From an uncultured Flavobacteriaceae bacterium (GTDB lineage Bacteria > Bacteroidota > Bacteroidia > Flavobacteriales > Weeksellaceae), in assembly GCA_963530615.1 (NCBI GenBank), contig CAUSDX010000003.1, positions 22,181 to 86,180 on the forward strand: a DNA stretch of 64,000 bases. Direction: 5' to 3'. Position 1 is the stretch's first letter, and every line of letters starts with the position of its first letter. Position numbers and translations under genes: made by a program. Positions 5,139 to 57,449 of the stretch are shown here, piece by piece. The notes beneath the pieces are model-generated. The model ran no database searches. It worked only from the letters and a program-made list of their open reading frames with translations, and was not told where the DNA came from.

Positions 5139-6167
5139 CTATTTTATAATTATTTCTTCGTTGTATTGACAAAATTTACTTTTAGTAAATCCCTGCTCTC
5201 TCATCCAATCATCACTATATATTTTAGTCATATATTTAGAACCATGATCTGGAAAAATCAAGACTACACAATCCTCTTCACTAAAAGGATTCGCCTCTGC
5301 ATATTGCATCAAACCTTGTACTACAGCCCCTGTTGTATACCCCCCCATAATTGCTTCTTTCATTGCAATTTCACGAGTCATATAAGCACTATCTTCGTCA
5401 TTTACTCTCACATATTCATCAATTTGATTAAAAAGTAAAGTATCTGGAATTAAATTTTTTCCAAGTCCTTCTATTTGATAAGAATGAATTTCACTTTTAT
5501 CAATTTTCCCTGTTTCATGATAAGTTTTTAGAATAGAACCATCAGCATCTACTCCTATAATTTTGATATTAGGATTTTTTTCTTTCAAATACTTCGCTGC
5601 CCCAGAGAGTGTCCCTCCCGTTCCCGTACAAGCTATTAAATGAGTAATTTTTCCTTGTGTCTGCTCCCAAATCTCTTTTCCAGTAGTCAAATAATGAGCT
5701 TCTATATTTAACTCATTAAAATACTGATTAATATAAATAGAATTAGGTGTTTCTTCTGCTATTTTCTTCGCTACCTCATAGTAAGAACGAGGGTCATCTG
5801 CTGGAACACTTGCAGGACAAACATAAACTTTCGCTCCTAACGCTCGTAAAAATGCAATTTTTTCTGGTTTGGTTTTATCACTTACTGCCAAAACACATTG
5901 ATAGCCCTTAATGATACTTATCATTGCCAAAGAAAATCCCGTATTTCCTGATGTAGTCTCTACGATAGTAGCCCCTGGCGTCAAAATTCCTCGCTCCTCA
6001 GCAACTTTTATAATATGTAATGCAATCCTATCTTTTACCGAATGTCCTGGGTTAAATGCTTCCAATTTAGCATATACTTTTGCAGAAATTCCTTCTACTA
6101 CATGATTTAATTTAACCATCGGCGTATTCCCCACCAAATCTAAAATACTATTATAAACATTATCCAT
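5139..6167 (-). CDS. PLP-dependent cysteine synthase/cystathionine beta-synthase-fold protein (candidate cysteate synthase CapA type)
   Basis: 342 aa with the SVKDR PLP-lysine motif, TSGNTG and GTGGT loops of fold-type II enzymes. Co-directional with and adjacent to the Spt-like gene. Confidence 0.8.
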   Translation of the reverse strand: MDNVYNSILDLVGNTPMVKLNHVVEGISAKVYAKLEAFNPGHSVKDRIALHIIKVAEERGILTPGATIVETTSGNTGFSLAMISIIKGYQCVLAVSDKTKPEKIAFLRALGAKVYVCPASVPADDPRSYYEVAKKIAEETPNSIYINQYFNELNIEAHYLTTGKEIWEQTQGKITHLIACTGTGGTLSGAAKYLKEKNPNIKIIGVDADGSILKTYHETGKIDKSEIHSYQIEGLGKNLIPDTLLFNQIDEYVRVNDEDSAYMTREIAMKEAIMGGYTTGAVVQGLMQYAEANPFSEEDCVVLIFPDHGSKYMTKIYSDDWMREQGFTKSKFCQYNEEIIIK

Positions 6168-10428: not shown

Positions 10429-10989
10429 CTATTTATTTTTCTCTAAAAAACGATGCACCTGCGAGGAGTTCCAATCTGCCGCCCCTGAATCTTTCTTTAA
10501 TATTTCGCCGTTTTTACTGATGATAAAAGTCGTAGGGAAAACATTAAAATGAAGAATTTCAGGGAGCTGACTGCTATCAATCATATAAACGGGAACGGTA
10601 TATTGGTTCTTTTCTAAGAAATCCCTTACTTTCTGCTCTTCATCTTGCATTGCTATCAGTACGAAATGAGCATTCTCCTTCTGCTTCATGTATAATTCTT
10701 GAATACTCGGAAACTCTGCTCTACATGGCGGACACCAGCTTCCCCAAAAATTAAGAAATAAGGTCTTCCCATAGAAGTCTGAGAGGTGAGCATCAGGGAC
10801 ATTGATGCCTTTCAGCTCAATATCATACTCCTCTTTCCTTAAAACTCCCTGCACACTTCCCTCCTCTACTGATGGACTGAACAAGAAAACTCTCATCACT
10901 CGTTCTCTAACACCTGGTACAAAGAAAAACACCAATACAAAAACTATAAATACAATGTTTCCTTTATTCTTTTTAATAAAATCTTTCAT
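10429..10989 (-). CDS. TlpA-family thiol-disulfide oxidoreductase
   Basis: 186 aa with an N-terminal TM anchor and a WCPPC thioredoxin-fold active site. Confidence 0.85.
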   Translation of the reverse strand: MKDFIKKNKGNIVFIVFVLVFFFVPGVRERVMRVFLFSPSVEEGSVQGVLRKEEYDIELKGINVPDAHLSDFYGKTLFLNFWGSWCPPCRAEFPSIQELYMKQKENAHFVLIAMQDEEQKVRDFLEKNQYTVPVYMIDSSQLPEILHFNVFPTTFIISKNGEILKKDSGAADWNSSQVHRFLEKNK

Positions 10990-11027
10990 TTTTTTATTCT
11001 AAAAATTAGTTTTAATCTTTTCACACT

Positions 11028-11185
11028 TCTTATTTTGCTCAAACTTTTGGTTTCTACTAAATCAGCCATCTTATTTTGCTTAAACCTTTGGTTTCTACTA
11101 AATCAGTCATCTTATTTTGTTCAATCCATTGGGTTTCTGCCAAATCAGTCATCTTATTTCGCTAAATCCATTGTTCCGAACTATT
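11028..11185. repeat. tandem repeat, 41/42-bp unit, about 3.7 copies
   Basis: The unit cttattttgctcaaacttttggtttctactaaatcagccat repeats at 11028, 11070 and 11111, with a partial copy at 11153. It lies in the intergenic region between the miaA stop and the tlpA-like start. Confidence 0.9.
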
Positions 11186-32268: not shown

Positions 32269-32424
32269 GCGATAATTTTTTTGCTAAAATATGAAAATTC
32301 TTCTGAAGTCAAAAAAGTTACAAAAAAATCAGTGTTAATGAAATCATAAATTTTAATAATTCATCTTCTTCTTTCTTCATCACTTTAATGAATACTAAAA
32401 GCCTTATAAAATGGACACCCTATT

Positions 32425-32563
32425 CTCTCTAAAAAATCTCTCGTGAGTTTTCCTAAAAACTCTCTTATGATTTCTCTAAAACTCTCTTATAATTTCTCTA
32501 AAACTCTCGTGAGATTTTTGCTAATCTCTTTAGAGTTTTATAAAATACTCTCTTATAAATTAT
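32425..32563. repeat. degenerate 22-24-bp tandem repeat (4 direct units plus an inverted/partial unit)
   Basis: The units ctctaaaa(a)ctctc(ttat|gtgag)Ratt(t) have 'cta' anchors at 32429, 32453, 32476 and 32498. The following segment ctctttagagtttta is an inverted copy. Confidence 0.8.
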
Positions 32564-32683
32564 TTTAGTCATACTTTTCATACTATAAATCCTCACTTAT
32601 AAAATTATTTTTTAACCTTAAAAAAGTCTTTTTCATTACCACTTATTTACCTCTACTTCCTCCTTTATTTTTAAGAAAAACCT

Positions 32684-48505: not shown

Positions 48506-48579
48506 GATCCGGTAGTTCAGTTGGTTAGAATGCCGCCCTGTCACGGCGGAGGTCGCGGGTTCGAGTCCCGTCCGGATCG
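48506..48579 (+). tRNA. tRNA-Asp (GTC)
   Basis: The 74-nt cloverleaf has acceptor gatccgg/ccggatc, a D-arm tagttcagttggttagaa, the anticodon loop ccTGTCAcg (anticodon GTC), and a T-arm gcgggttcgagtcccgt. CCA is not encoded. Confidence 0.9.
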
Positions 48580-48607
48580 CAAGATTTAATTTATTCCAAA
48601 GACTACT

Positions 48608-48681
48608 GATCCGGTAGTTCAGTTGGTTAGAATGCCGCCCTGTCACGGCGGAGGTCGCGGGTTCGAGTCCCGTCCGGATCG
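48608..48681 (+). tRNA. tRNA-Asp (GTC), identical second copy
   Basis: By eye this is the same 74-nt sequence as 48506-48579, with a 28-nt spacer between the two. Confidence 0.9.
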
Positions 48682-48684
48682 CAA

Positions 48685-50846: not shown

Positions 50847-51004
50847 GGATAGGTTAGCCTATGTAAGCGGAGGGACACGAATGCGGTTCCTTTGCTGTAT
50901 AGCCCCAGCTGTAAAAGAATAAGATTCTGCCCCAGCTCTTTTTGAGTAGAATATTCACATCTCCGATAGAGGCAGCGGAGATACCTATTCTGAAAGGCAA
51001 ACAG

Positions 51005-51628
51005 ATGGAAGGCAAACAAGTAAAATCCAAACAGCGAGTAGCAGACCACGGCGAGGTATTCACTGCCGAGAGAGAGGTAAAAGCTATGGTAGATTTGGTA
51101 TGGAAAGAGTTAGACAGAGGCAGTGCAGATAAACTGATGACCGCTACTTTTTTAGAGCCATCTTGTGGTTCTGGTAATTTTCTCATAGAAATTCTCCGCA
51201 GAAAGATAGATCTCCTTAAAAAAACAAAAAAAGATAAAGCCGAATATCGGTTTTATTTGGTGATGATTGCTGGTAGTCTCTATGGTGTAGAGCTCCTTCC
51301 TGATAATGCCCAAGAGTGCCGAGAAAGACTTCTCGCAGAGTTCCAAAAAGCATATCCCAAAAAAGAAGCCGTCTATGAAAGACTGATGAAGAGCATCGCG
51401 TTCGTCATCAGCCAGAATATCATTTGCGGTGATGCCCTTACCTACACTACCCCAGAGGGGGAGCCTATCCTCTTCACCCACTGGGTAGGCACAGGCATGC
51501 CAAAAATTACCGCCAATTACTTTGACTACGGCGAACTAACGAACAAAAAAATGGGAAAGATGTCTCTCTTTGCAGAGCATACCGTGAAAGACTCCGTGAC
51601 GAAGCACTACTTGGAACTCTCAGAATAG
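51005..51628 (+). CDS. SAM-binding DNA-methyltransferase-like protein lacking catalytic motif IV
   Basis: HGEVFTAEREVKAMVDL plus motif I FLEPSCGSGNFL (51149-51184), followed by YGVELLPD and NIICGDAL. No (D/N)PP(Y/F) motif occurs before the stop. The start was placed at the ATG at 51005; the track's TTG at 50942 would read through a 7-bp hairpin (atctccg...cggagat). Confidence 0.65.
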   Translation: MEGKQVKSKQRVADHGEVFTAEREVKAMVDLVWKELDRGSADKLMTATFLEPSCGSGNFLIEILRRKIDLLKKTKKDKAEYRFYLVMIAGSLYGVELLPDNAQECRERLLAEFQKAYPKKEAVYERLMKSIAFVISQNIICGDALTYTTPEGEPILFTHWVGTGMPKITANYFDYGELTNKKMGKMSLFAEHTVKDSVTKHYLELSE

Positions 51629-51649
51629 CCTAAAACCTTTTTTTCTCTC

Positions 51650-53227
51650 ATGAAAAATTACAATCCTGACATTCTCAACTGTCTTGCCAATCTGAGCAGT
51701 GATGAGGTCTTCACTCCGCCTAACATTGCTACCAAGATGCTGGATCTCCTACCACAGAAGCTCTTCTCTGACCCTAATGCCAAGTTCTTAGACCCTTTCT
51801 CCAAATCTGGTGTATTTTTAAGAGAAATAGCCAAAAGACTGCTGAAAGGTTTAGAAAGCCAAATCCCAGAATTGCAGGAGCGTATAGACCACATCATGCA
51901 CCACCAGCTCTATGGCATAGGCATCACGGAGCTTACCGCCTACATGAGCCGCCGTAGTCTCTACTGCTCCACTCGTGCCAATAGCAAGCACTCCGTTACT
52001 CACTTCCCAGATGAAGACGGCAACATCTTCTTTGAGGAAATCTCCCACACATGGGACAAAAACAGAAAATGCATCTACTGCGGTGTGAACCAAAAAGACT
52101 TTGGGGATGAAATAAGAGAGGGACTCTCTAAATATGCCTACCCCTTTATCCATAACCTTAACCCTTACGAAAACATGAACTTTGATGTTATTATAGGAAA
52201 TCCGCCTTACCACTTAAATGTAGGGAATGATAAAGAAAAAGGAAATAGCTCAAAAGCAAAAGCTATTTATCATCTCTTTATTGACCAAGCTATCAAAATG
52301 AACCCTAAATATATTTGTATGATTATACCAAGCCGCTGGATGACAAGAAGTACAGAGGGGGTATCTGAAAAATGGATAGATAAAATGCTAAGTTCTAATA
52401 AGTTTAGAATCATACATGATTTCTTGGATGCCAAAGGTATTTTCTCCGGAACACCTCCAAAAGGTGGAGTCAATTATTTCTTATGGGACAGAGATTACAA
52501 TGGGGAGTGTCATTATTATCTATATGAAAGTGCAAATAAACCTTCCTCTTATAGATTTGAAGCATTAGATAAAAATAATTCAGGTATTATCATCAGGGAT
52601 AGGATAGCCAACGATATATTAAAGAAAATATCAGAAGTTCATCAGGATTATATGAAAAATGGGGAGAATTTTTCTTCCTTAATTAGCCCAAAGGACTTTT
52701 TTACCAATAAACAATGGCTTACTTCTAGTTGGAATGGTTTTGCTAACACTCCTAATCAAGATTATAACATCAAATATTATCCTAATAAAATACTTCTAAA
52801 AAATGGCGCTAATTTTGGCTGGATTAACATCAACCAAATCCCTAAAAATAGAGAAACTAAAGACTTACATAAGGTATTTATTCCTGCCGCAGGAGGTTCG
52901 GGAACAGATACCCATGTTTTAGGACATCCTTTTTATGGTGAGCCTAATTCAGTGTGCTCACAAACATATTTGGTAATAGGATATAATCAAGACTTTACCA
53001 AAGAAGAGTGTTTAAATATTATCTCCTACATCAATACTCGTTTTTTTAGATATTTAGTTTCTATTAAAAAGAAAACCCAAAATGGAGCAAGAGGCGTTTA
53101 CCAATTTGTCCCTATACAAGATTTTGACAAGCCATGGACAGATGCAGAGCTTTATGATAAATACAGCCTCACAGAAGAGGAAATTGCCTATATAGAGAGT
53201 TTGGTAAGTGATAAAAGAGAGGAGTAA
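51650..53227 (+). CDS. N6-adenine DNA methyltransferase, Eco57I/TaqI-like gamma class, with C-terminal target-recognition region
   Basis: 525 aa. SSDEVFTPP, a motif I variant FLDPFSKSGVFL (51785-51820), the catalytic DVIIGNPPY (NPPY at 52199-52210), and a typical C-terminal tail (PWTDAELYDKYSLTEEEIAYIE). Confidence 0.85.
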   Translation: MKNYNPDILNCLANLSSDEVFTPPNIATKMLDLLPQKLFSDPNAKFLDPFSKSGVFLREIAKRLLKGLESQIPELQERIDHIMHHQLYGIGITELTAYMSRRSLYCSTRANSKHSVTHFPDEDGNIFFEEISHTWDKNRKCIYCGVNQKDFGDEIREGLSKYAYPFIHNLNPYENMNFDVIIGNPPYHLNVGNDKEKGNSSKAKAIYHLFIDQAIKMNPKYICMIIPSRWMTRSTEGVSEKWIDKMLSSNKFRIIHDFLDAKGIFSGTPPKGGVNYFLWDRDYNGECHYYLYESANKPSSYRFEALDKNNSGIIIRDRIANDILKKISEVHQDYMKNGENFSSLISPKDFFTNKQWLTSSWNGFANTPNQDYNIKYYPNKILLKNGANFGWININQIPKNRETKDLHKVFIPAAGGSGTDTHVLGHPFYGEPNSVCSQTYLVIGYNQDFTKEECLNIISYINTRFFRYLVSIKKKTQNGARGVYQFVPIQDFDKPWTDAELYDKYSLTEEEIAYIESLVSDKREE

Positions 53228-53244
53228 CTTAAAAAATAAAAATT

Positions 53245-53907
53245 ATGAAAAAAATAGAATTAAAAAAAGAATATTACTATGAAATATTTTGTAATAATAT
53301 GGGAGATATTCCTAACTATAAAGTAGTTAAATATTTAGGAAATCATCAAATACAATTTTTGGATAATAATGAAATTATAGAATTAGATGAAACTCTAATA
53401 ACTCATGCCGATAAGCAACTAAAAAATGGAAAAAATATTACCTATGCCAAAGGGATTTTCGGTTTTAGAGATATATCAATAGAATCCAAACATTTAGAAA
53501 AATTAGGTTTTATAAAAAAAGAAGGAAATTTATATGAAATAGATAATCCTAATATAAAAATTATGATGTATTTAGCAATATTAGGAGATGAAAACTTTAA
53601 TTACATCGGAAATATTGTAATGAATAGCAAAGAATATAATCATCTTATTCAAAAAATAGAAGATAAAGAAGAATGGAAAAATAAATATAAAATTGTCTTT
53701 AATAATACATTATACATTATTGATAATACTAATATTATAGATTATTTATACTACGGAAAGCCAATGAAGTTAAATTTAGATGCACATAATGAAATAGTAA
53801 CAATAATAAATGAAAATTTCAAAGGAATACGAAATATAAATGAATTATTTGAAAGATTAGAAAAAGAAGGAGTTAAAATAGAAAATAAAGATGAAATACT
53901 AATATGA
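53245..53907 (+). CDS. hypothetical protein (N/I/K-rich, extremely AT-rich gene)
   Basis: 220-aa ORF, 17 nt after the MTase stop on the same strand. No motif recognised. Confidence 0.55.
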   Translation: MKKIELKKEYYYEIFCNNMGDIPNYKVVKYLGNHQIQFLDNNEIIELDETLITHADKQLKNGKNITYAKGIFGFRDISIESKHLEKLGFIKKEGNLYEIDNPNIKIMMYLAILGDENFNYIGNIVMNSKEYNHLIQKIEDKEEWKNKYKIVFNNTLYIIDNTNIIDYLYYGKPMKLNLDAHNEIVTIINENFKGIRNINELFERLEKEGVKIENKDEILI

Positions 53908-53919
53908 ATGAAATACTCG

Positions 53920-54127
53920 CTCTCCACCAAGTATAAAACAAGCAAAGCGGAGTATGAAATACCCAAGACCAAGTGTAAAATAAGCGAGACCGAGTGGTAT
54001 TTTTAGAAGATTGAGCAGTAAAAATGCAAAACGGAGTGTAAAATATCAAAAACCAAACAGTATATTTAGAATAATGAGTAGTAAAAATCATTTTTTTTAG
54101 AATAATTCAAAAACTGAGTAAGAAATA
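53920..54127. repeat. 21-bp phased degenerate tandem array, about 10 units (core RAGTRTAAAAYA)
   Basis: Unit anchors at 53931, 53952, 53973, 53994, 54015, 54036, 54057 and 54078 are exactly 21 bp apart. A weaker unit lies near 54118. Confidence 0.85.
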
Positions 54128-54144
54128 TTAAAAATTAAAAAATT

Positions 54145-54801
54145 ATGACAAAGAAAATCTACAAAACCAATGAAGAAATGCTCCAAAATGCTCAAGTGCT
54201 TTTTGAGACCATAGAGAAAAACCAAGACATCGCCCAAAAATTAGAGGACTACGGCTACCCTACGGCAGAAATCGCCAAGGGCAAAAAGCTCTACACCACC
54301 GCACAAACTCTCTACGGCACCAACAAGAAAGAAACCGAAGAAGAACGCATCGCTTACCAGAAATTCAGCTCCGCTATGGACGAGCTTACCAAAACCTATG
54401 CCGAGCATCGCAACAAAGCCAAGCTTATCTTCAAGGAAAACGAAACCGCGAAAATCAGCCTTGCCCTCAAAGGAAGCCCTGCCACTGCCATCACCACACT
54501 TCTGGAAGAAATCACCCAGTTTTATAAAAACCTCCATGAGCAAGAAGCTCTCAGAACACCTCTTATCAGAGTGAAAATCACCACAGAAAACATCACCGAC
54601 CAACAGGCGAAAACCTCCCAAGTGAAAAATCTATACTCTACCTATGCACAAGAAAAAAACGAAAGTCAACAAGCGACCAAAGACAAGAATAAAGCCTTTG
54701 CCGACCTTGATAAATGGACCCGCGAACTCTACGCCTACGCCAAGTATGCCCTTGCCGAACATAGCCAGTTCTTACAAATATTTGGCAAAACCGTGAAATA
54801 A
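54145..54801 (+). CDS. hypothetical protein, predicted all-helical with an internal duplication
   Basis: 218-aa ORF in the GC-richer part of the island. Two similar ~90-aa halves are visible (LYTTAQTLYG...AMDELTKTYAEH and LYSTYAQEKN...AFADLDKWTRELYAY). No known motif recognised. Confidence 0.6.
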   Translation: MTKKIYKTNEEMLQNAQVLFETIEKNQDIAQKLEDYGYPTAEIAKGKKLYTTAQTLYGTNKKETEEERIAYQKFSSAMDELTKTYAEHRNKAKLIFKENETAKISLALKGSPATAITTLLEEITQFYKNLHEQEALRTPLIRVKITTENITDQQAKTSQVKNLYSTYAQEKNESQQATKDKNKAFADLDKWTRELYAYAKYALAEHSQFLQIFGKTVK

Positions 54802-54851
54802 AATTTTGGCAAAAAGATAGAATATATCAACTTTCTTAAAAACCGAATAAA

Positions 54852-57449
54852 ATGAATTTTTTTACACAAAATAACATCCCTAAAATATATGCCTACACCG
54901 ATGAGCATTTCCCAGGTATGCTAAAAGTAGGCTATACTACCAAAACCGCCGCCGAACGAGTAAAAGAGCAATACCCCGTGAAGATGCCTCGCCAGACTTG
55001 GGAAATCGTTTTAGAAGAAGTAGCCACAAGAGAAAATGGCACTTATTTTACTGACCATGACCTGCATAAAAGATTGGAAAAAAAAGGCTTTCACCGAGAA
55101 AATGGAGAATGGTTTCTCTGCACTCTGAAAGATTTAGAAGCCATCATCATAGAAGAAAAAAAAGGCATCGTCAACACTGAAAACCGCTCCCAAAACTTCA
55201 GCATGAGACCAGAGCAAAAAGAAGCCGTAGAGCGTACGGCAAGATACTTCACTGCCGTGAGAGAGGAGGGCTACACCCCTCACTTCCTTTGGAATGCCAA
55301 AATGCGTTTCGGAAAGACTTTTGCGACATATCAACTTGCCCTAAAAATGGGCTGGACTAAGGTACTCGTGCTGACCTTCAAACCTGCTGTCCTCAGTGCA
55401 TGGCGAGAAGACCTCCAAGAACATATAGACTTCCAAAACTGGCAGTTCGTTTCCAATAAAGAAGAAGACCTCAACCCAAAGGAGATTGACAAAAATAGAC
55501 CCTTCGTGTATTTCGGCTCTTTCCAAGATCATTTAGGTTTAGATAAAAAAACAGGTCTTATCAAACCTAAAAATGAATGGCTACATGATGTAGAATGGGA
55601 CTGCGTGATCTTTGATGAATACCACTTCGGTGCATGGAGAGATAAATCCAAAAAAATCTTTGAAGCCATAGAAGGTACTGATGACAAAGATAAAGAAGAA
55701 AAAAAACGACTAAAAGAAGAACTAAAAGAATTCAAAGAACAAGAAGAGGAACAAAAAGAGTTAGACACCGAAGAATCTGGAAAAACAGAAGACCTCTCCT
55801 ACTTTGATGAAAACCTCATTACCATCTCTACCAAACATTACCTCTATCTTTCAGGGACACCCTTCCGTGCCTTGGCAGATGGGGAGTTCATAGAAGAACA
55901 AATCTATAACTGGACCTACTCCGATGAGCAAAAAGCCAAAGCTGAATGGAAAGGCGAGAATAATCCCTATGCCTCTCTCCCAGAAATGATAATGATGACC
56001 TATCAGCTCCCTGGTGAAATCAAGGACATCGCCTCTAAAGGAGAATTTAATGAATTTGACCTCAACACTTTCTTCTCTACCGAAAAAGCCGAAAATGAGC
56101 ATAACAGCGAGAAAAAAACCAAAAAAGGGAAGAGAAATGAAGAAAATACCGTCTTCAAATACCAAGACGAAGTGCAAAAATGGCTAAACTTTATCCGTGG
56201 GCAGTTTTTAGGAAATGCTGAAGCACAGCTCAAACAAGGAAAAAGTAAAGCACCAATGCCTTTCTCCGATAGCCGACTTTTGGACATCTTACAGCATACC
56301 TTTTGGTTCTTACCGAATGTATCCTCTTGCTATGCCATGGCAAACCTTCTGAAAAGCCCTAAAAATCAAGCCTTTTTTGGAGATTATAACATCGTGGTCT
56401 GTGCAGGAGCAGAAGCAGGAATAGGCGTAGAAGCCCTAAAACCTGTGGCAAAAGCCATGGGCGACCCCCTCAAAACCAAAACCATCACCCTCTCCTGCGG
56501 AAAACTCACCACAGGGGTTTCTGTCTCACCTTGGTCAGGGATTTTCATGCTGAGAAACTCTTCCAGCCCAGAGACTTATTTCCAATCCATCTTCCGAGTG
56601 CAAACTCCTTGGGTCATTAAAAACCCTAATGGAGAAACTCCAAATGAGCGAGTCATCATCAAAAACAAATGTTATGTGTTTGACTTTGACCCTAACCGAG
56701 CATTGAAACAAGTGGTATCCTATGCTCAAAAACTAAATACAGACGCAAGCATACCTTCGGAAGAGAAAATAACGGAACTTATCAGTTTCTTACCTATCTT
56801 GGCTTATGATGGGGAGAATATGACAGAAATAGATGCTTTAAAAGTATTAGAAATTGCCCACAATGGGACTACCGCTACCTTACTTGCCAGAAGATGGGAA
56901 TCGGCTCTGCTCGTCAATGTAGATAATATTACCTTGGAAAAACTTCTCAAAAACCAAGAAGCCATGGACATATTAGAAAATATAGAAGGATTTAGAAATT
57001 TAGGGCAAGATATAGAAACCATCATCACTAAATCTAACGAGATAAAAAAAAATAAACAAAAAGGAACGACTAAAGATCCCAAAGAAAAAAAGAAACTTAG
57101 TGAGGAGGAAAAGGAATACAAAAGCAAAAGAAAACAGATTCAGGATAAACTTCTAAAATTCGCGACCAGAATCCCTGTATTCATGTATCTCTCCGAATAT
57201 AGAGAGCAGACTCTGAGAGATGTCATCACCCTCTTAGAACCTGAACTCTTCAAAAAAGTAACTGGGATAGAGGTGAAAGATTTTGAACTCTTAGAAAGAT
57301 TAGGACTATTCAACAGCAATCTGATGAATGATGCCGTGGAAAAATTCAAAGCCTATGAAGACAGCTCCCTTGCCTACACAGGAAAGAAAACTTATGGTAA
57401 TCTCAGAGTAGGTTTATTTGATACCACAAAAACTATTACAGAAGAATAA
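54852..57449 (+). CDS. T5orf172/GIY-YIG-like nuclease domain fused to an SF2 (restriction Res-type) helicase
   Basis: 865 aa. The N-terminus is IYAYTDEHFPGMLKVGYTT...ERVKEQ...DHDLHKRL...NGEWF (T5orf172 pattern). Helicase motifs are Walker A FGKT (55311-55319), DEYH (55614-55625), LSGTPF and motif VI QSIFRVQT. There are K/E-rich insertions. Confidence 0.8.
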   Translation: MNFFTQNNIPKIYAYTDEHFPGMLKVGYTTKTAAERVKEQYPVKMPRQTWEIVLEEVATRENGTYFTDHDLHKRLEKKGFHRENGEWFLCTLKDLEAIIIEEKKGIVNTENRSQNFSMRPEQKEAVERTARYFTAVREEGYTPHFLWNAKMRFGKTFATYQLALKMGWTKVLVLTFKPAVLSAWREDLQEHIDFQNWQFVSNKEEDLNPKEIDKNRPFVYFGSFQDHLGLDKKTGLIKPKNEWLHDVEWDCVIFDEYHFGAWRDKSKKIFEAIEGTDDKDKEEKKRLKEELKEFKEQEEEQKELDTEESGKTEDLSYFDENLITISTKHYLYLSGTPFRALADGEFIEEQIYNWTYSDEQKAKAEWKGENNPYASLPEMIMMTYQLPGEIKDIASKGEFNEFDLNTFFSTEKAENEHNSEKKTKKGKRNEENTVFKYQDEVQKWLNFIRGQFLGNAEAQLKQGKSKAPMPFSDSRLLDILQHTFWFLPNVSSCYAMANLLKSPKNQAFFGDYNIVVCAGAEAGIGVEALKPVAKAMGDPLKTKTITLSCGKLTTGVSVSPWSGIFMLRNSSSPETYFQSIFRVQTPWVIKNPNGETPNERVIIKNKCYVFDFDPNRALKQVVSYAQKLNTDASIPSEEKITELISFLPILAYDGENMTEIDALKVLEIAHNGTTATLLARRWESALLVNVDNITLEKLLKNQEAMDILENIEGFRNLGQDIETIITKSNEIKKNKQKGTTKDPKEKKKLSEEEKEYKSKRKQIQDKLLKFATRIPVFMYLSEYREQTLRDVITLLEPELFKKVTGIEVKDFELLERLGLFNSNLMNDAVEKFKAYEDSSLAYTGKKTYGNLRVGLFDTTKTITEE

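Follow-up and report, generated by a model that had tools for sequence, protein, structure and literature searches.

The window analyzed here, a 64-kb stretch (64,000 nucleotides) of contig CAUSDX010000003.1 from an uncultured Flavobacteriaceae bacterium, contains an array of degenerate 21-bp repeats directly upstream of a gene encoding a 218-aa protein of the PQLLE family. The window has ~35% G+C and carries the type IX secretion system gene sprA, pdxJ, two tRNA-Asp genes, and a transglycosylase gene, and its source belongs to, or is closely related to, the Flavobacteriales. The owner of the array is the 218-aa PQLLE gene, not the surrounding island or the helicase gene that follows, and array and gene together are a two-part module conserved across Bacteroidota, with the period kept and the sequence not. 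The features of the locus are listed below (ORF, open reading frame).

50942-51628, + strand: methylase fragment, MmeI-type N6-adenine methylase, 228 aa (context only)
51650-53227, + strand: Eco57I-type N6-adenine methylase, 525 aa (context only)
53245-53907, + strand: variable orphan ORF, 220 aa, ~22% G+C, belonging to no family in ORF and family scans
53908-53926, + strand: junction (ATGAAATACTCGCTCTCCA) from the stop of the upstream ORF to the first unit
53927-54094, + strand: core array of eight degenerate 21-bp units (21-bp stacking, shuffles, motif search)
54095-54144, + strand: two decayed units (54095-54136) and an A/T-rich run to the ATG, without a TAnnTTTG promoter box
54145-54801, + strand: PQLLE family gene, 218 aa, the owner of the array (NCBIfam NF052641)
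54852-57449, + strand: T5orf172 (GIY-YIG-like) and ResIII helicase, 865 aa (context, outside the module)

Stacked in 21-bp lines, the core array resolves into eight related units in an exact 21-bp register, which are, in order, CCAAGTATAAAACAAGCAAAG, CGGAGTATGAAATACCCAAGA, CCAAGTGTAAAATAAGCGAGA, CCGAGTGGTATTTTTAGAAGA, TTGAGCAGTAAAAATGCAAAA, CGGAGTGTAAAATATCAAAAA, CCAAACAGTATATTTAGAATA, and ATGAGTAGTAAAAATCATTTT. Each unit combines a conserved stretch of approximately (C/G)(C/G)RAGTRTAAAAYA with a variable one, and the + strand of the array is A-rich (46% A). An earlier reading made from the letters alone (here called the sequence-only reading) correctly placed the repeats at exactly 21 bp, with anchors at 53931 + 21n, and correctly described the flanking ORFs of 220 aa (53245-53907) and 218 aa (54145-54801). 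Its count of about ten units comprises eight that are sure and two, at 54095-54136, that are weak and decayed; the unit that it placed near 54118 lies 2 bp out of register. The next start codon is at 54145.

The self-identity of the array at lag 21 is 0.524, with further peaks at lag 42 (0.56) and lag 63 (0.59), compared with 0.314 ± 0.035 at lag 21 in 5,000 dinucleotide-preserving shuffles (z = 6.0); none of the 5,000 shuffles matched the observed identity, whether at lag 21 or elsewhere in the range of lags from 5 to 63. A 63-bp substructure is also present, with 83% identity between 53996-54025 and 54059-54088. The units are so degenerate that Tandem Repeats Finder, the program by which the sequence-only reading had proposed to formalize the period, missed the array even with its minimum score lowered to 30. 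The exact motif RAGTRTAAAAYA is confined to the array within the window, and a search for a unit-motif regulon in the window gave 13 one-mismatch matches outside the array, near the chance level. Rfam gave zero matches in 53900-54150 even at an E value of ≤1, a tRNA scan found nothing within the array, and a check for a leader or tail with terminal inverted repeats found only weak, A/T-rich inverted matches flanking it. A reading of the array as similar to clustered regularly interspaced short palindromic repeats was dropped because a repeat and its spacer would not fit into a 21-bp period.

A genome scan found 25 loci with PQLLE homologs, in Capnocytophaga, Riemerella, Bergeyella, Marinilabiliaceae, and Porphyromonadaceae, with at most four per genome. 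A further 79 loci, some of them marine, came from a metagenome scan, with protein identities as low as ~30%. In these ~100 homologous loci, PQLLE ORFs were defined by profile, and upstream DNA of 150 bp or more was available for 83 loci. In 79 of the 83, an array of at least 100 bp stands directly 5' of the PQLLE ATG. These arrays have a median length of 192 bp and a maximum of 402 bp (~5 to 19 units) and stop a few tens of base pairs short of the ATG; collapsing the proteins at 85% identity left 39 independent lineages. Sixty-nine metagenome loci had enough DNA upstream for a scan of lags from 6 to 70; the best lag was 21, 42, or 63 in 57 of them and was 20, 22, 41, or 62 in 10 more. Printing the upstream regions in 21-bp lines likewise displayed a phased array before nearly every PQLLE gene of the genome set, each with its own unit sequence. 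When a lag-21 scan was slid along the window and the genome loci, such arrays were almost confined to PQLLE upstream regions; by our own count, the upstream regions of seven other genes in the same DNA scored as high after removal of missed PQLLE genes.

The conservation is thus one of period: no universal core motif was found across the arrays beyond an A-tract, and one such tract per unit, (C)AAAA(A)T, is the sole feature common to arrays of different lineages. The sense strand is A-rich in nearly all of them. Within the single genome of Bergeyella porcorum, the arrays of four paralogs (loci L005, L008, L016, and L020) have unrelated units, and therefore one shared sequence-reading factor is unlikely. 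Among the loci compared, no other gene is conserved beside PQLLE; its neighbors elsewhere are unrelated, mostly housekeeping genes of many kinds, and the nearest upstream gene is co-oriented with PQLLE in 19 of 19 genome loci examined. Two loci depart from the usual layout. In L084, a near-perfect 21-bp array (1682-1862; lag identity, 0.90), T-rich on the PQLLE strand, lies directly 3' of the PQLLE stop codon, and the usual upstream array is also present. In L003, from Capnocytophaga catalasegens, the array (5592-5820) is ~200 bp further from the ATG than usual and is followed by what by eye is a perfect hairpin (GTAGAGATGCAATGCATTGCGTCTCTAC), an arrangement in which the array resembles a transcription unit of its own.

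This distribution bears on two proposals of the sequence-only reading. Control of the helicase operon, or a link to the island, is not supported, since the array travels with PQLLE at ~80 loci with unrelated neighbors; the window and Riemerella columbina are the only genome loci at which PQLLE is followed by the helicase. The proposal that a former mobile element left the repeats behind as iterons of its origin now appears far-fetched, and so does a remnant partition centromere. Repeat length and phasing do resemble those established for plasmid iterons and centromere arrays: iteron-type repeats of 17 to 22 bp are phased at ~21 to 22 bp, and eight units here follow each other at exactly 21 bp. 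Like iterons beside a Rep gene (e.g., those of ~22 bp), PQLLE arrays are lineage-specific direct repeats of ~20 to 22 bp, about two helical turns, beside the gene of the presumed binder, and like partition-operon centromeres (parC type, or sopC with its 43-bp repeats) they are phased, tandem, and lineage specific, with cooperative binding by the adjacent gene product there and, as a proposal, here. However, Pfam, NCBIfam, PADLOC, and PHROGs searches revealed no Rep, Par, or relaxase-type protein among the flanking genes, PQLLE is not Rep-like and has neither winged-helix domains nor a detectable ribbon-helix-helix or helix-turn-helix, and no partition ATPase and no plasmid or origin context accompanies the arrays, which run to as many as 19 units. 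The window instead carries sprA, pdxJ, tRNA, and transglycosylase genes, the homologous modules lie among chromosomal housekeeping genes, and a chromosome may hold up to four of them.

As seven codons make 21 nt, the array might also be a current or former coding heptad repeat, either an N-terminal extension of PQLLE or a separate peptide, that has decayed in the window, an outcome that the sequence-only reading had itself set against its interpretation while judging the array to be most likely noncoding or a decayed repeat gene. Of these, the noncoding reading holds. Stops interrupt all three + frames of the window array (1, 7, and 5) and all six frames of several other arrays, including those of L001 and L002. 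Open sense frames are no more common than chance (8 of 37 arrays compared with 9.1 expected when the 21 columns are permuted), and the arrays show no shortage or excess of stop or ATG triplets (observed/expected ratio for AUG, 1.08). Some arrays have periods of 20 bp (L076), 22 bp (L036), 41 bp (L075, L087, L078, L047, L054, and L092), or 62 bp (L086 and L088) and therefore cannot encode heptads. The ATG at 53908 does open a short ORF, as had been described, of 32 codons, but by our reading of the sequence this ORF lacks a start codon in the 94%-identical relative L026. On the other side, the L008 array is open by our own reading, giving a 110-aa ORF (MQNDYQV VQNKRPA...), a similar seven-residue repeat occurs in L024, and a few database PQLLE entries have heptad-like N-terminal extensions, for example, that of Labilibaculum, which is annotated as 331 aa or 219 aa. 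These extensions are arrays that happen to be open. The window array and the PQLLE arrays are noncoding, and the coding explanation, largely refuted already, is highly improbable. For annotation, the arrays account for contig breaks before PQLLE genes and for spurious N-terminal extensions such as that of the 331-aa form.

Comparison of close relatives suggests what is retained within the arrays. The closest relatives of the window locus (L026 to L028; 94% protein identity) have the same array with exactly one extra 5' unit and a different upstream gene; in L026, a different 244-aa ORF replaces the 220-aa ORF, and despite this the C/T-rich end of the junction (CTCGCTCTCCA) recurs. Substitutions between L001 and L002 avoid particular unit phases (P = 0.0015 by permutation). 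In the pair L029 and L030, the number of units is equal and the spacers are orthologous unit by unit, and AA has changed to CG at the same two phases in six of six units (P = 5e-5), the unit types being GAGGGAAGAAT in L029 and GAGGGCGGAAT in L030. A coordinated change of this kind would be expected if every unit were a site for one recognizer whose specificity had shifted. Together, these patterns show that the arrays are under phase-specific selection, with turnover of whole units.

A further kind of exchange was seen in 24 loci from one Capnocytophaga species complex. The PQLLE body from about codon 9 and the downstream flank are 97 to 100% identical among them, and the array, the leader, and codons 1 to 8 are exchanged as a block, with a sharp breakpoint. 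Through this exchange, the N-terminal arm of PQLLE covaries with the array type; three types were found, and the leader differs among them.

Array half-unit CCGTAG: PQLLE N-terminus MATRFISF
Array half-unit TAGGCAA: PQLLE N-terminus MNRFHISF
Array half-unit CAAACA: PQLLE N-terminus MAFYRITT

In the same complex (L011, L012, and L033 to L060), variable codirectional genes, which differ from strain to strain, lie between a conserved ABC-F-like gene and the PQLLE array. Those that could be identified are defense or toxin genes, namely, SieB, a CfrBI-type restriction-modification pair, PDC-S06 (AAA_13), and an ADP-ribosyltransferase. The array is the right-hand boundary of this hotspot, whose last gene ends, in most of these loci, no more than ~30 bp from the array edge, and the window repeats the pattern on a small scale, with the 220-aa ORF and, in L026, the 244-aa ORF abutting the same array.

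Such variability could mean that the array is a hypervariable minisatellite that has no function of its own or serves contingency only, arising by slippage or unequal exchange from one ancestral 21-bp array with its period inherited, and that it marks a recombination-prone junction beside PQLLE. The whole-unit insertions or deletions between close relatives (the window and L026), an array divergence that equals or exceeds that of third codon positions, the defense genes ending at the array edge, and the swapping of arrays between near-identical genes would all fit this explanation. Nevertheless, arrays are kept in ~95% of loci, down to 30% protein identity and including marine metagenomes, and they are under phase-specific constraint. 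Spacers remain orthologous while cores change in concert, which argues against simple homogenization. We therefore consider a functionless minisatellite distinctly unlikely.

As promoter signals, we searched for the Bacteroidetes -7 consensus box, TAnnTTTG (background, 0.93 per kb); a sigma-70-type promoter scan was not informative in a Bacteroidetes host. In eight loci, the box falls between positions -14 and +4 relative to the array start, and it is conserved together with its surroundings in the ortholog pairs L001/L002 and L029/L030, which belong to the clades nearest to the window, and no box occurs between array and ATG in 79 loci (~5 kb). With boxes at the 5' edge of some arrays and none between array and ATG, PQLLE arrays are probably transcribed as a long leader. 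In several loci, a terminator-like hairpin of the upstream gene was seen by eye just before the array, so that the promoter would be at or inside the array. The promoter region at the 5' array edge is absent in the window and in L026. In the window, the 220-aa ORF stops 19 bp short of the first unit, with no terminator-like site from that ORF to the array, which would be an intercistronic spacer there.

The array might accordingly be imagined to act as RNA. As a repetitive, A-rich 5' leader or intercistronic spacer without secondary structure, it would serve either as a ribosome standby or translation-enhancer site in these bacteria, which lack Shine-Dalgarno sequences, or as a multisite platform for an RNA-binding protein; the binder could be PQLLE itself, in the manner of T4 gp32 on its own unstructured leader. 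The box positions, the A-rich sense strand, and the hairpins seen by eye all suit such a role, as does the absence of secondary structure beyond chance in the window array, whose RNA fold is no better than those of shuffles (z = 0.18). The exchanged block, in taking in the first eight codons, also covers the whole translation initiation region. However, a 20- to 22-nt spacing has no obvious reason in single-stranded RNA, AUG is not avoided, and there is no Rfam match. With CsrB/RsmZ sponge RNAs or the T4 gene 32 leader, the array would share many motif copies ~20 nt apart or an unstructured, self-bound leader; unlike CsrB/RsmZ, it has no hairpin-presented GGA, Rfam match, or CsrA-type partner, and strict periodicity is absent from those RNAs. 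On balance, an RNA role is a serious competitor, although in our judgment a somewhat unlikely one.

DNA shape was considered as well. In a wedge model with approximate parameters, the outcome of a curvature check that the sequence-only reading had proposed, the window array is predicted to be strongly bent, with an end-to-end/contour ratio of 0.76 compared with 0.94 in shuffles. The bend is not general: in the same model, with the same approximate parameters, about half of the arrays have strong curvature and about a third are as straight as shuffles or straighter. One A-tract per two helical turns could in principle work by shape alone, its curvature or superhelical path modulating a promoter or recruiting a nucleoid protein, and the A-tract as the sole cross-lineage feature, the clustering of periods at 20 to 22 bp, and the predicted bending would favor this. 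However, given the heterogeneous curvature, shape alone is not the common denominator. It would also leave unexplained why AA turned into CG in all six units alike and why cores that contain G/C are conserved, making this explanation quite improbable.

The 218-aa protein is a full-length member of its family, with 199.8 bits against NF052641 (cutoff, 80) and residues 6 to 215 aligned to positions 2 to 211 of the 211-position profile. An AlphaFold2 model (predicted local distance difference test score, 89) is all-alpha with 10 helices; Foldseek gave no match to it at an E value of ≤0.001 in PDB or BFVD, a PDB sequence search gave no match, and no significant Pfam domain was detected. Weak matches to a PtuA-like PADLOC profile (E = 9e-4) and to a PHROGs tail chaperone (E = 4e-3) are probably compositional, as between helical proteins, and were rejected. 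The alignment revealed conserved motifs, HRKKAK and GESQQATKDKNKAF...W..Y..AK.AL...PQLLE, and two conserved motifs are basic. The family is large and uncharacterized, comprises 2,444 clusters at 50% identity (E ≤ 1e-3), and occurs in host-associated and marine Bacteroidota.

Around the module, the window has a five-gene cluster (50942-57449) that is syntenic with Riemerella columbina DSM 16469 (L004, 2646-9231; 62% identity), in the order short methylase ORF, Eco57I-type methylase, variable ORF, array plus PQLLE, and T5orf172-ResIII helicase. The helicase, which matches positions 151 to 803 of PADLOC profile PDLC03626, pairs with the upstream methylase genes in a split restriction-modification-like cluster; methylase and helicase match separate halves of this one fused type IIG profile, in reversed order. 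Inside the helicase coding region, an A/G-rich stretch at 55692-55760 has a 21-bp (seven-codon) period (Tandem Repeats Finder score, 54) and presumably encodes a Lys/Glu-rich repeat. Two tRNA-Asp(GTC) genes lie in tandem, ~100 bp apart, at 48506-48682, and a subthreshold match to YrlA (Y RNA-like) across their junction is probably an echo of the tRNAs.

Two other arrays of similar unit length occur in the window. The array at 10975-11168 (sense strand, -) has a 41-bp period with alternating subunits of ~20 and 21 bp (GATTTAGTAGAAACCAAAG and GTTTAAGCAAAATAAGATGGCT). It lies downstream of miaA and ends ~40 nt upstream of a thioredoxin/ResA-like gene (10429-10989, - strand); its architecture matches that of a PQLLE array, and the gene is unrelated. 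The array at 32400-32568 has a 22-bp period (AACTCTCTTATGATTTCTCTAA; lag identity, 0.74) and lies between the divergently oriented genes ftsX (-) and rsmA/ksgA (+). Three arrays of ~21-bp units within 64 kb suggest a genome-wide habit. Elsewhere, genes of the DUF6261 family (~222 to 233 aa) at three loci have upstream arrays of 41- to 42-nt units (L014, 5473-5751; L110, ~1210-1430; and L111, ~330-560), each unit having by eye a short inverted repeat whose stem sequence varies between units. Homology between PQLLE and DUF6261 was rejected (hhalign probability, 0.1%).

Based on these comparisons, the most likely function of the array would be that of a multisite platform for the regulation of PQLLE, with PQLLE itself as the possible binder. 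We hypothesize that each ~21-bp unit would provide one short recognition core and a free spacer, that the units together would form a platform for a sequence-specific binder whose specificity depends on the lineage, and that PQLLE, possibly via its variable N-terminal arm, would bind its own array cooperatively and thereby autoregulate. We infer, in other words, that a protein binds the arrays, that this protein is PQLLE, and that the outcome is regulation of PQLLE. PQLLE is proposed as the binder because it is the sole gene always coinherited with the array, has two conserved basic motifs, and exchanges its N-terminal arm together with the array. Duplex DNA would be our preferred target, bound at one site per two helical turns, because arrays with unrelated sequences keep a period of that length, although unstructured leader RNA would fit almost as well. 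We assign a probability of roughly 0.4 to cooperative binding of PQLLE to its own array, with duplex DNA favored, and regulation of its own expression. The iteron- or operator-like binding platform that had been suggested from the window alone is, given the phase-specific constraint and the coordinated substitution, the best fit to the comparative data.

Several observations weigh against this proposal. Array divergence between close relatives is about equal to that of third codon positions or higher, and overall constraint is therefore weak. The window itself has no promoter box upstream of its array, and no DNA- or RNA-binding fold is recognizable in PQLLE by Pfam, PDB, or Foldseek searches. 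The covariation of N-terminus and array may be mere linkage, as both lie on the same side of one breakpoint, and unit types are mixed within one allele group (L042). Finally, the two other arrays in the window stand beside unrelated genes, and the period may reflect something more general than PQLLE.

Among known systems, LytTR-type sites consist of 9-bp direct repeats with 12-bp spacers, giving a 21-bp period, and occur in pairs. PQLLE arrays similarly have a conserved core and a free spacer that total 21 bp; unlike LytTR sites, they come in runs of 6 to 19 rather than in pairs, and their cores are mutually unrelated. No LytTR gene was found among the eight window neighbors scanned. Literature searches on PQLLE, on DUF6261, and on 21-bp repeats with Bacteroidetes found no publication on PQLLE or its arrays; only BrickBuilt was relevant. 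BrickBuilt is an intergenic minisatellite/miniature inverted-repeat transposable element of Porphyromonas gingivalis with ~22-nt tandem repeats without spacers, promoter activity, and variable copy number; it is one 23-nt sequence that occurs 19 times per genome, in an element with inverted-repeat ends and without a tie to a gene family (PMC4596501). In contrast, PQLLE arrays have lineage-specific units and are tied to PQLLE, and the four modules of one genome have unrelated units. The array would be a phased tandem array of putative binding sites, attached to an uncharacterized protein family.

A bolder version of this proposal, which we regard as unlikely, envisions a self-contained nucleoprotein module of an undescribed kind, in which PQLLE, a small all-alpha protein with a new fold, would polymerize on its own phased array (as DNA or leader RNA), with specificity set by the array and the first eight codons. 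In such a module, the site at the edge of a defense hotspot could act as an insulator, sensor, or recombination boundary for incoming cassettes. With DUF6261, a family of similar size but unrelated sequence, preceded by analogous arrays, repeat-headed small helical proteins may on this view represent a wider class in Bacteroidota.

The array before PQLLE points to an undescribed regulatory module, and the PQLLE family gains from it a concrete handle: a candidate ligand, namely, its own array, and natural specificity variants, in the form of AA versus CG cores and of three array alleles on one gene body. PQLLE arrays also provide a family-wide case of a cis element with a conserved period and a free sequence, which bears on the coevolution of tandem sites and their binders and is relevant to gene regulation in a phylum with non-textbook promoters and translation signals.

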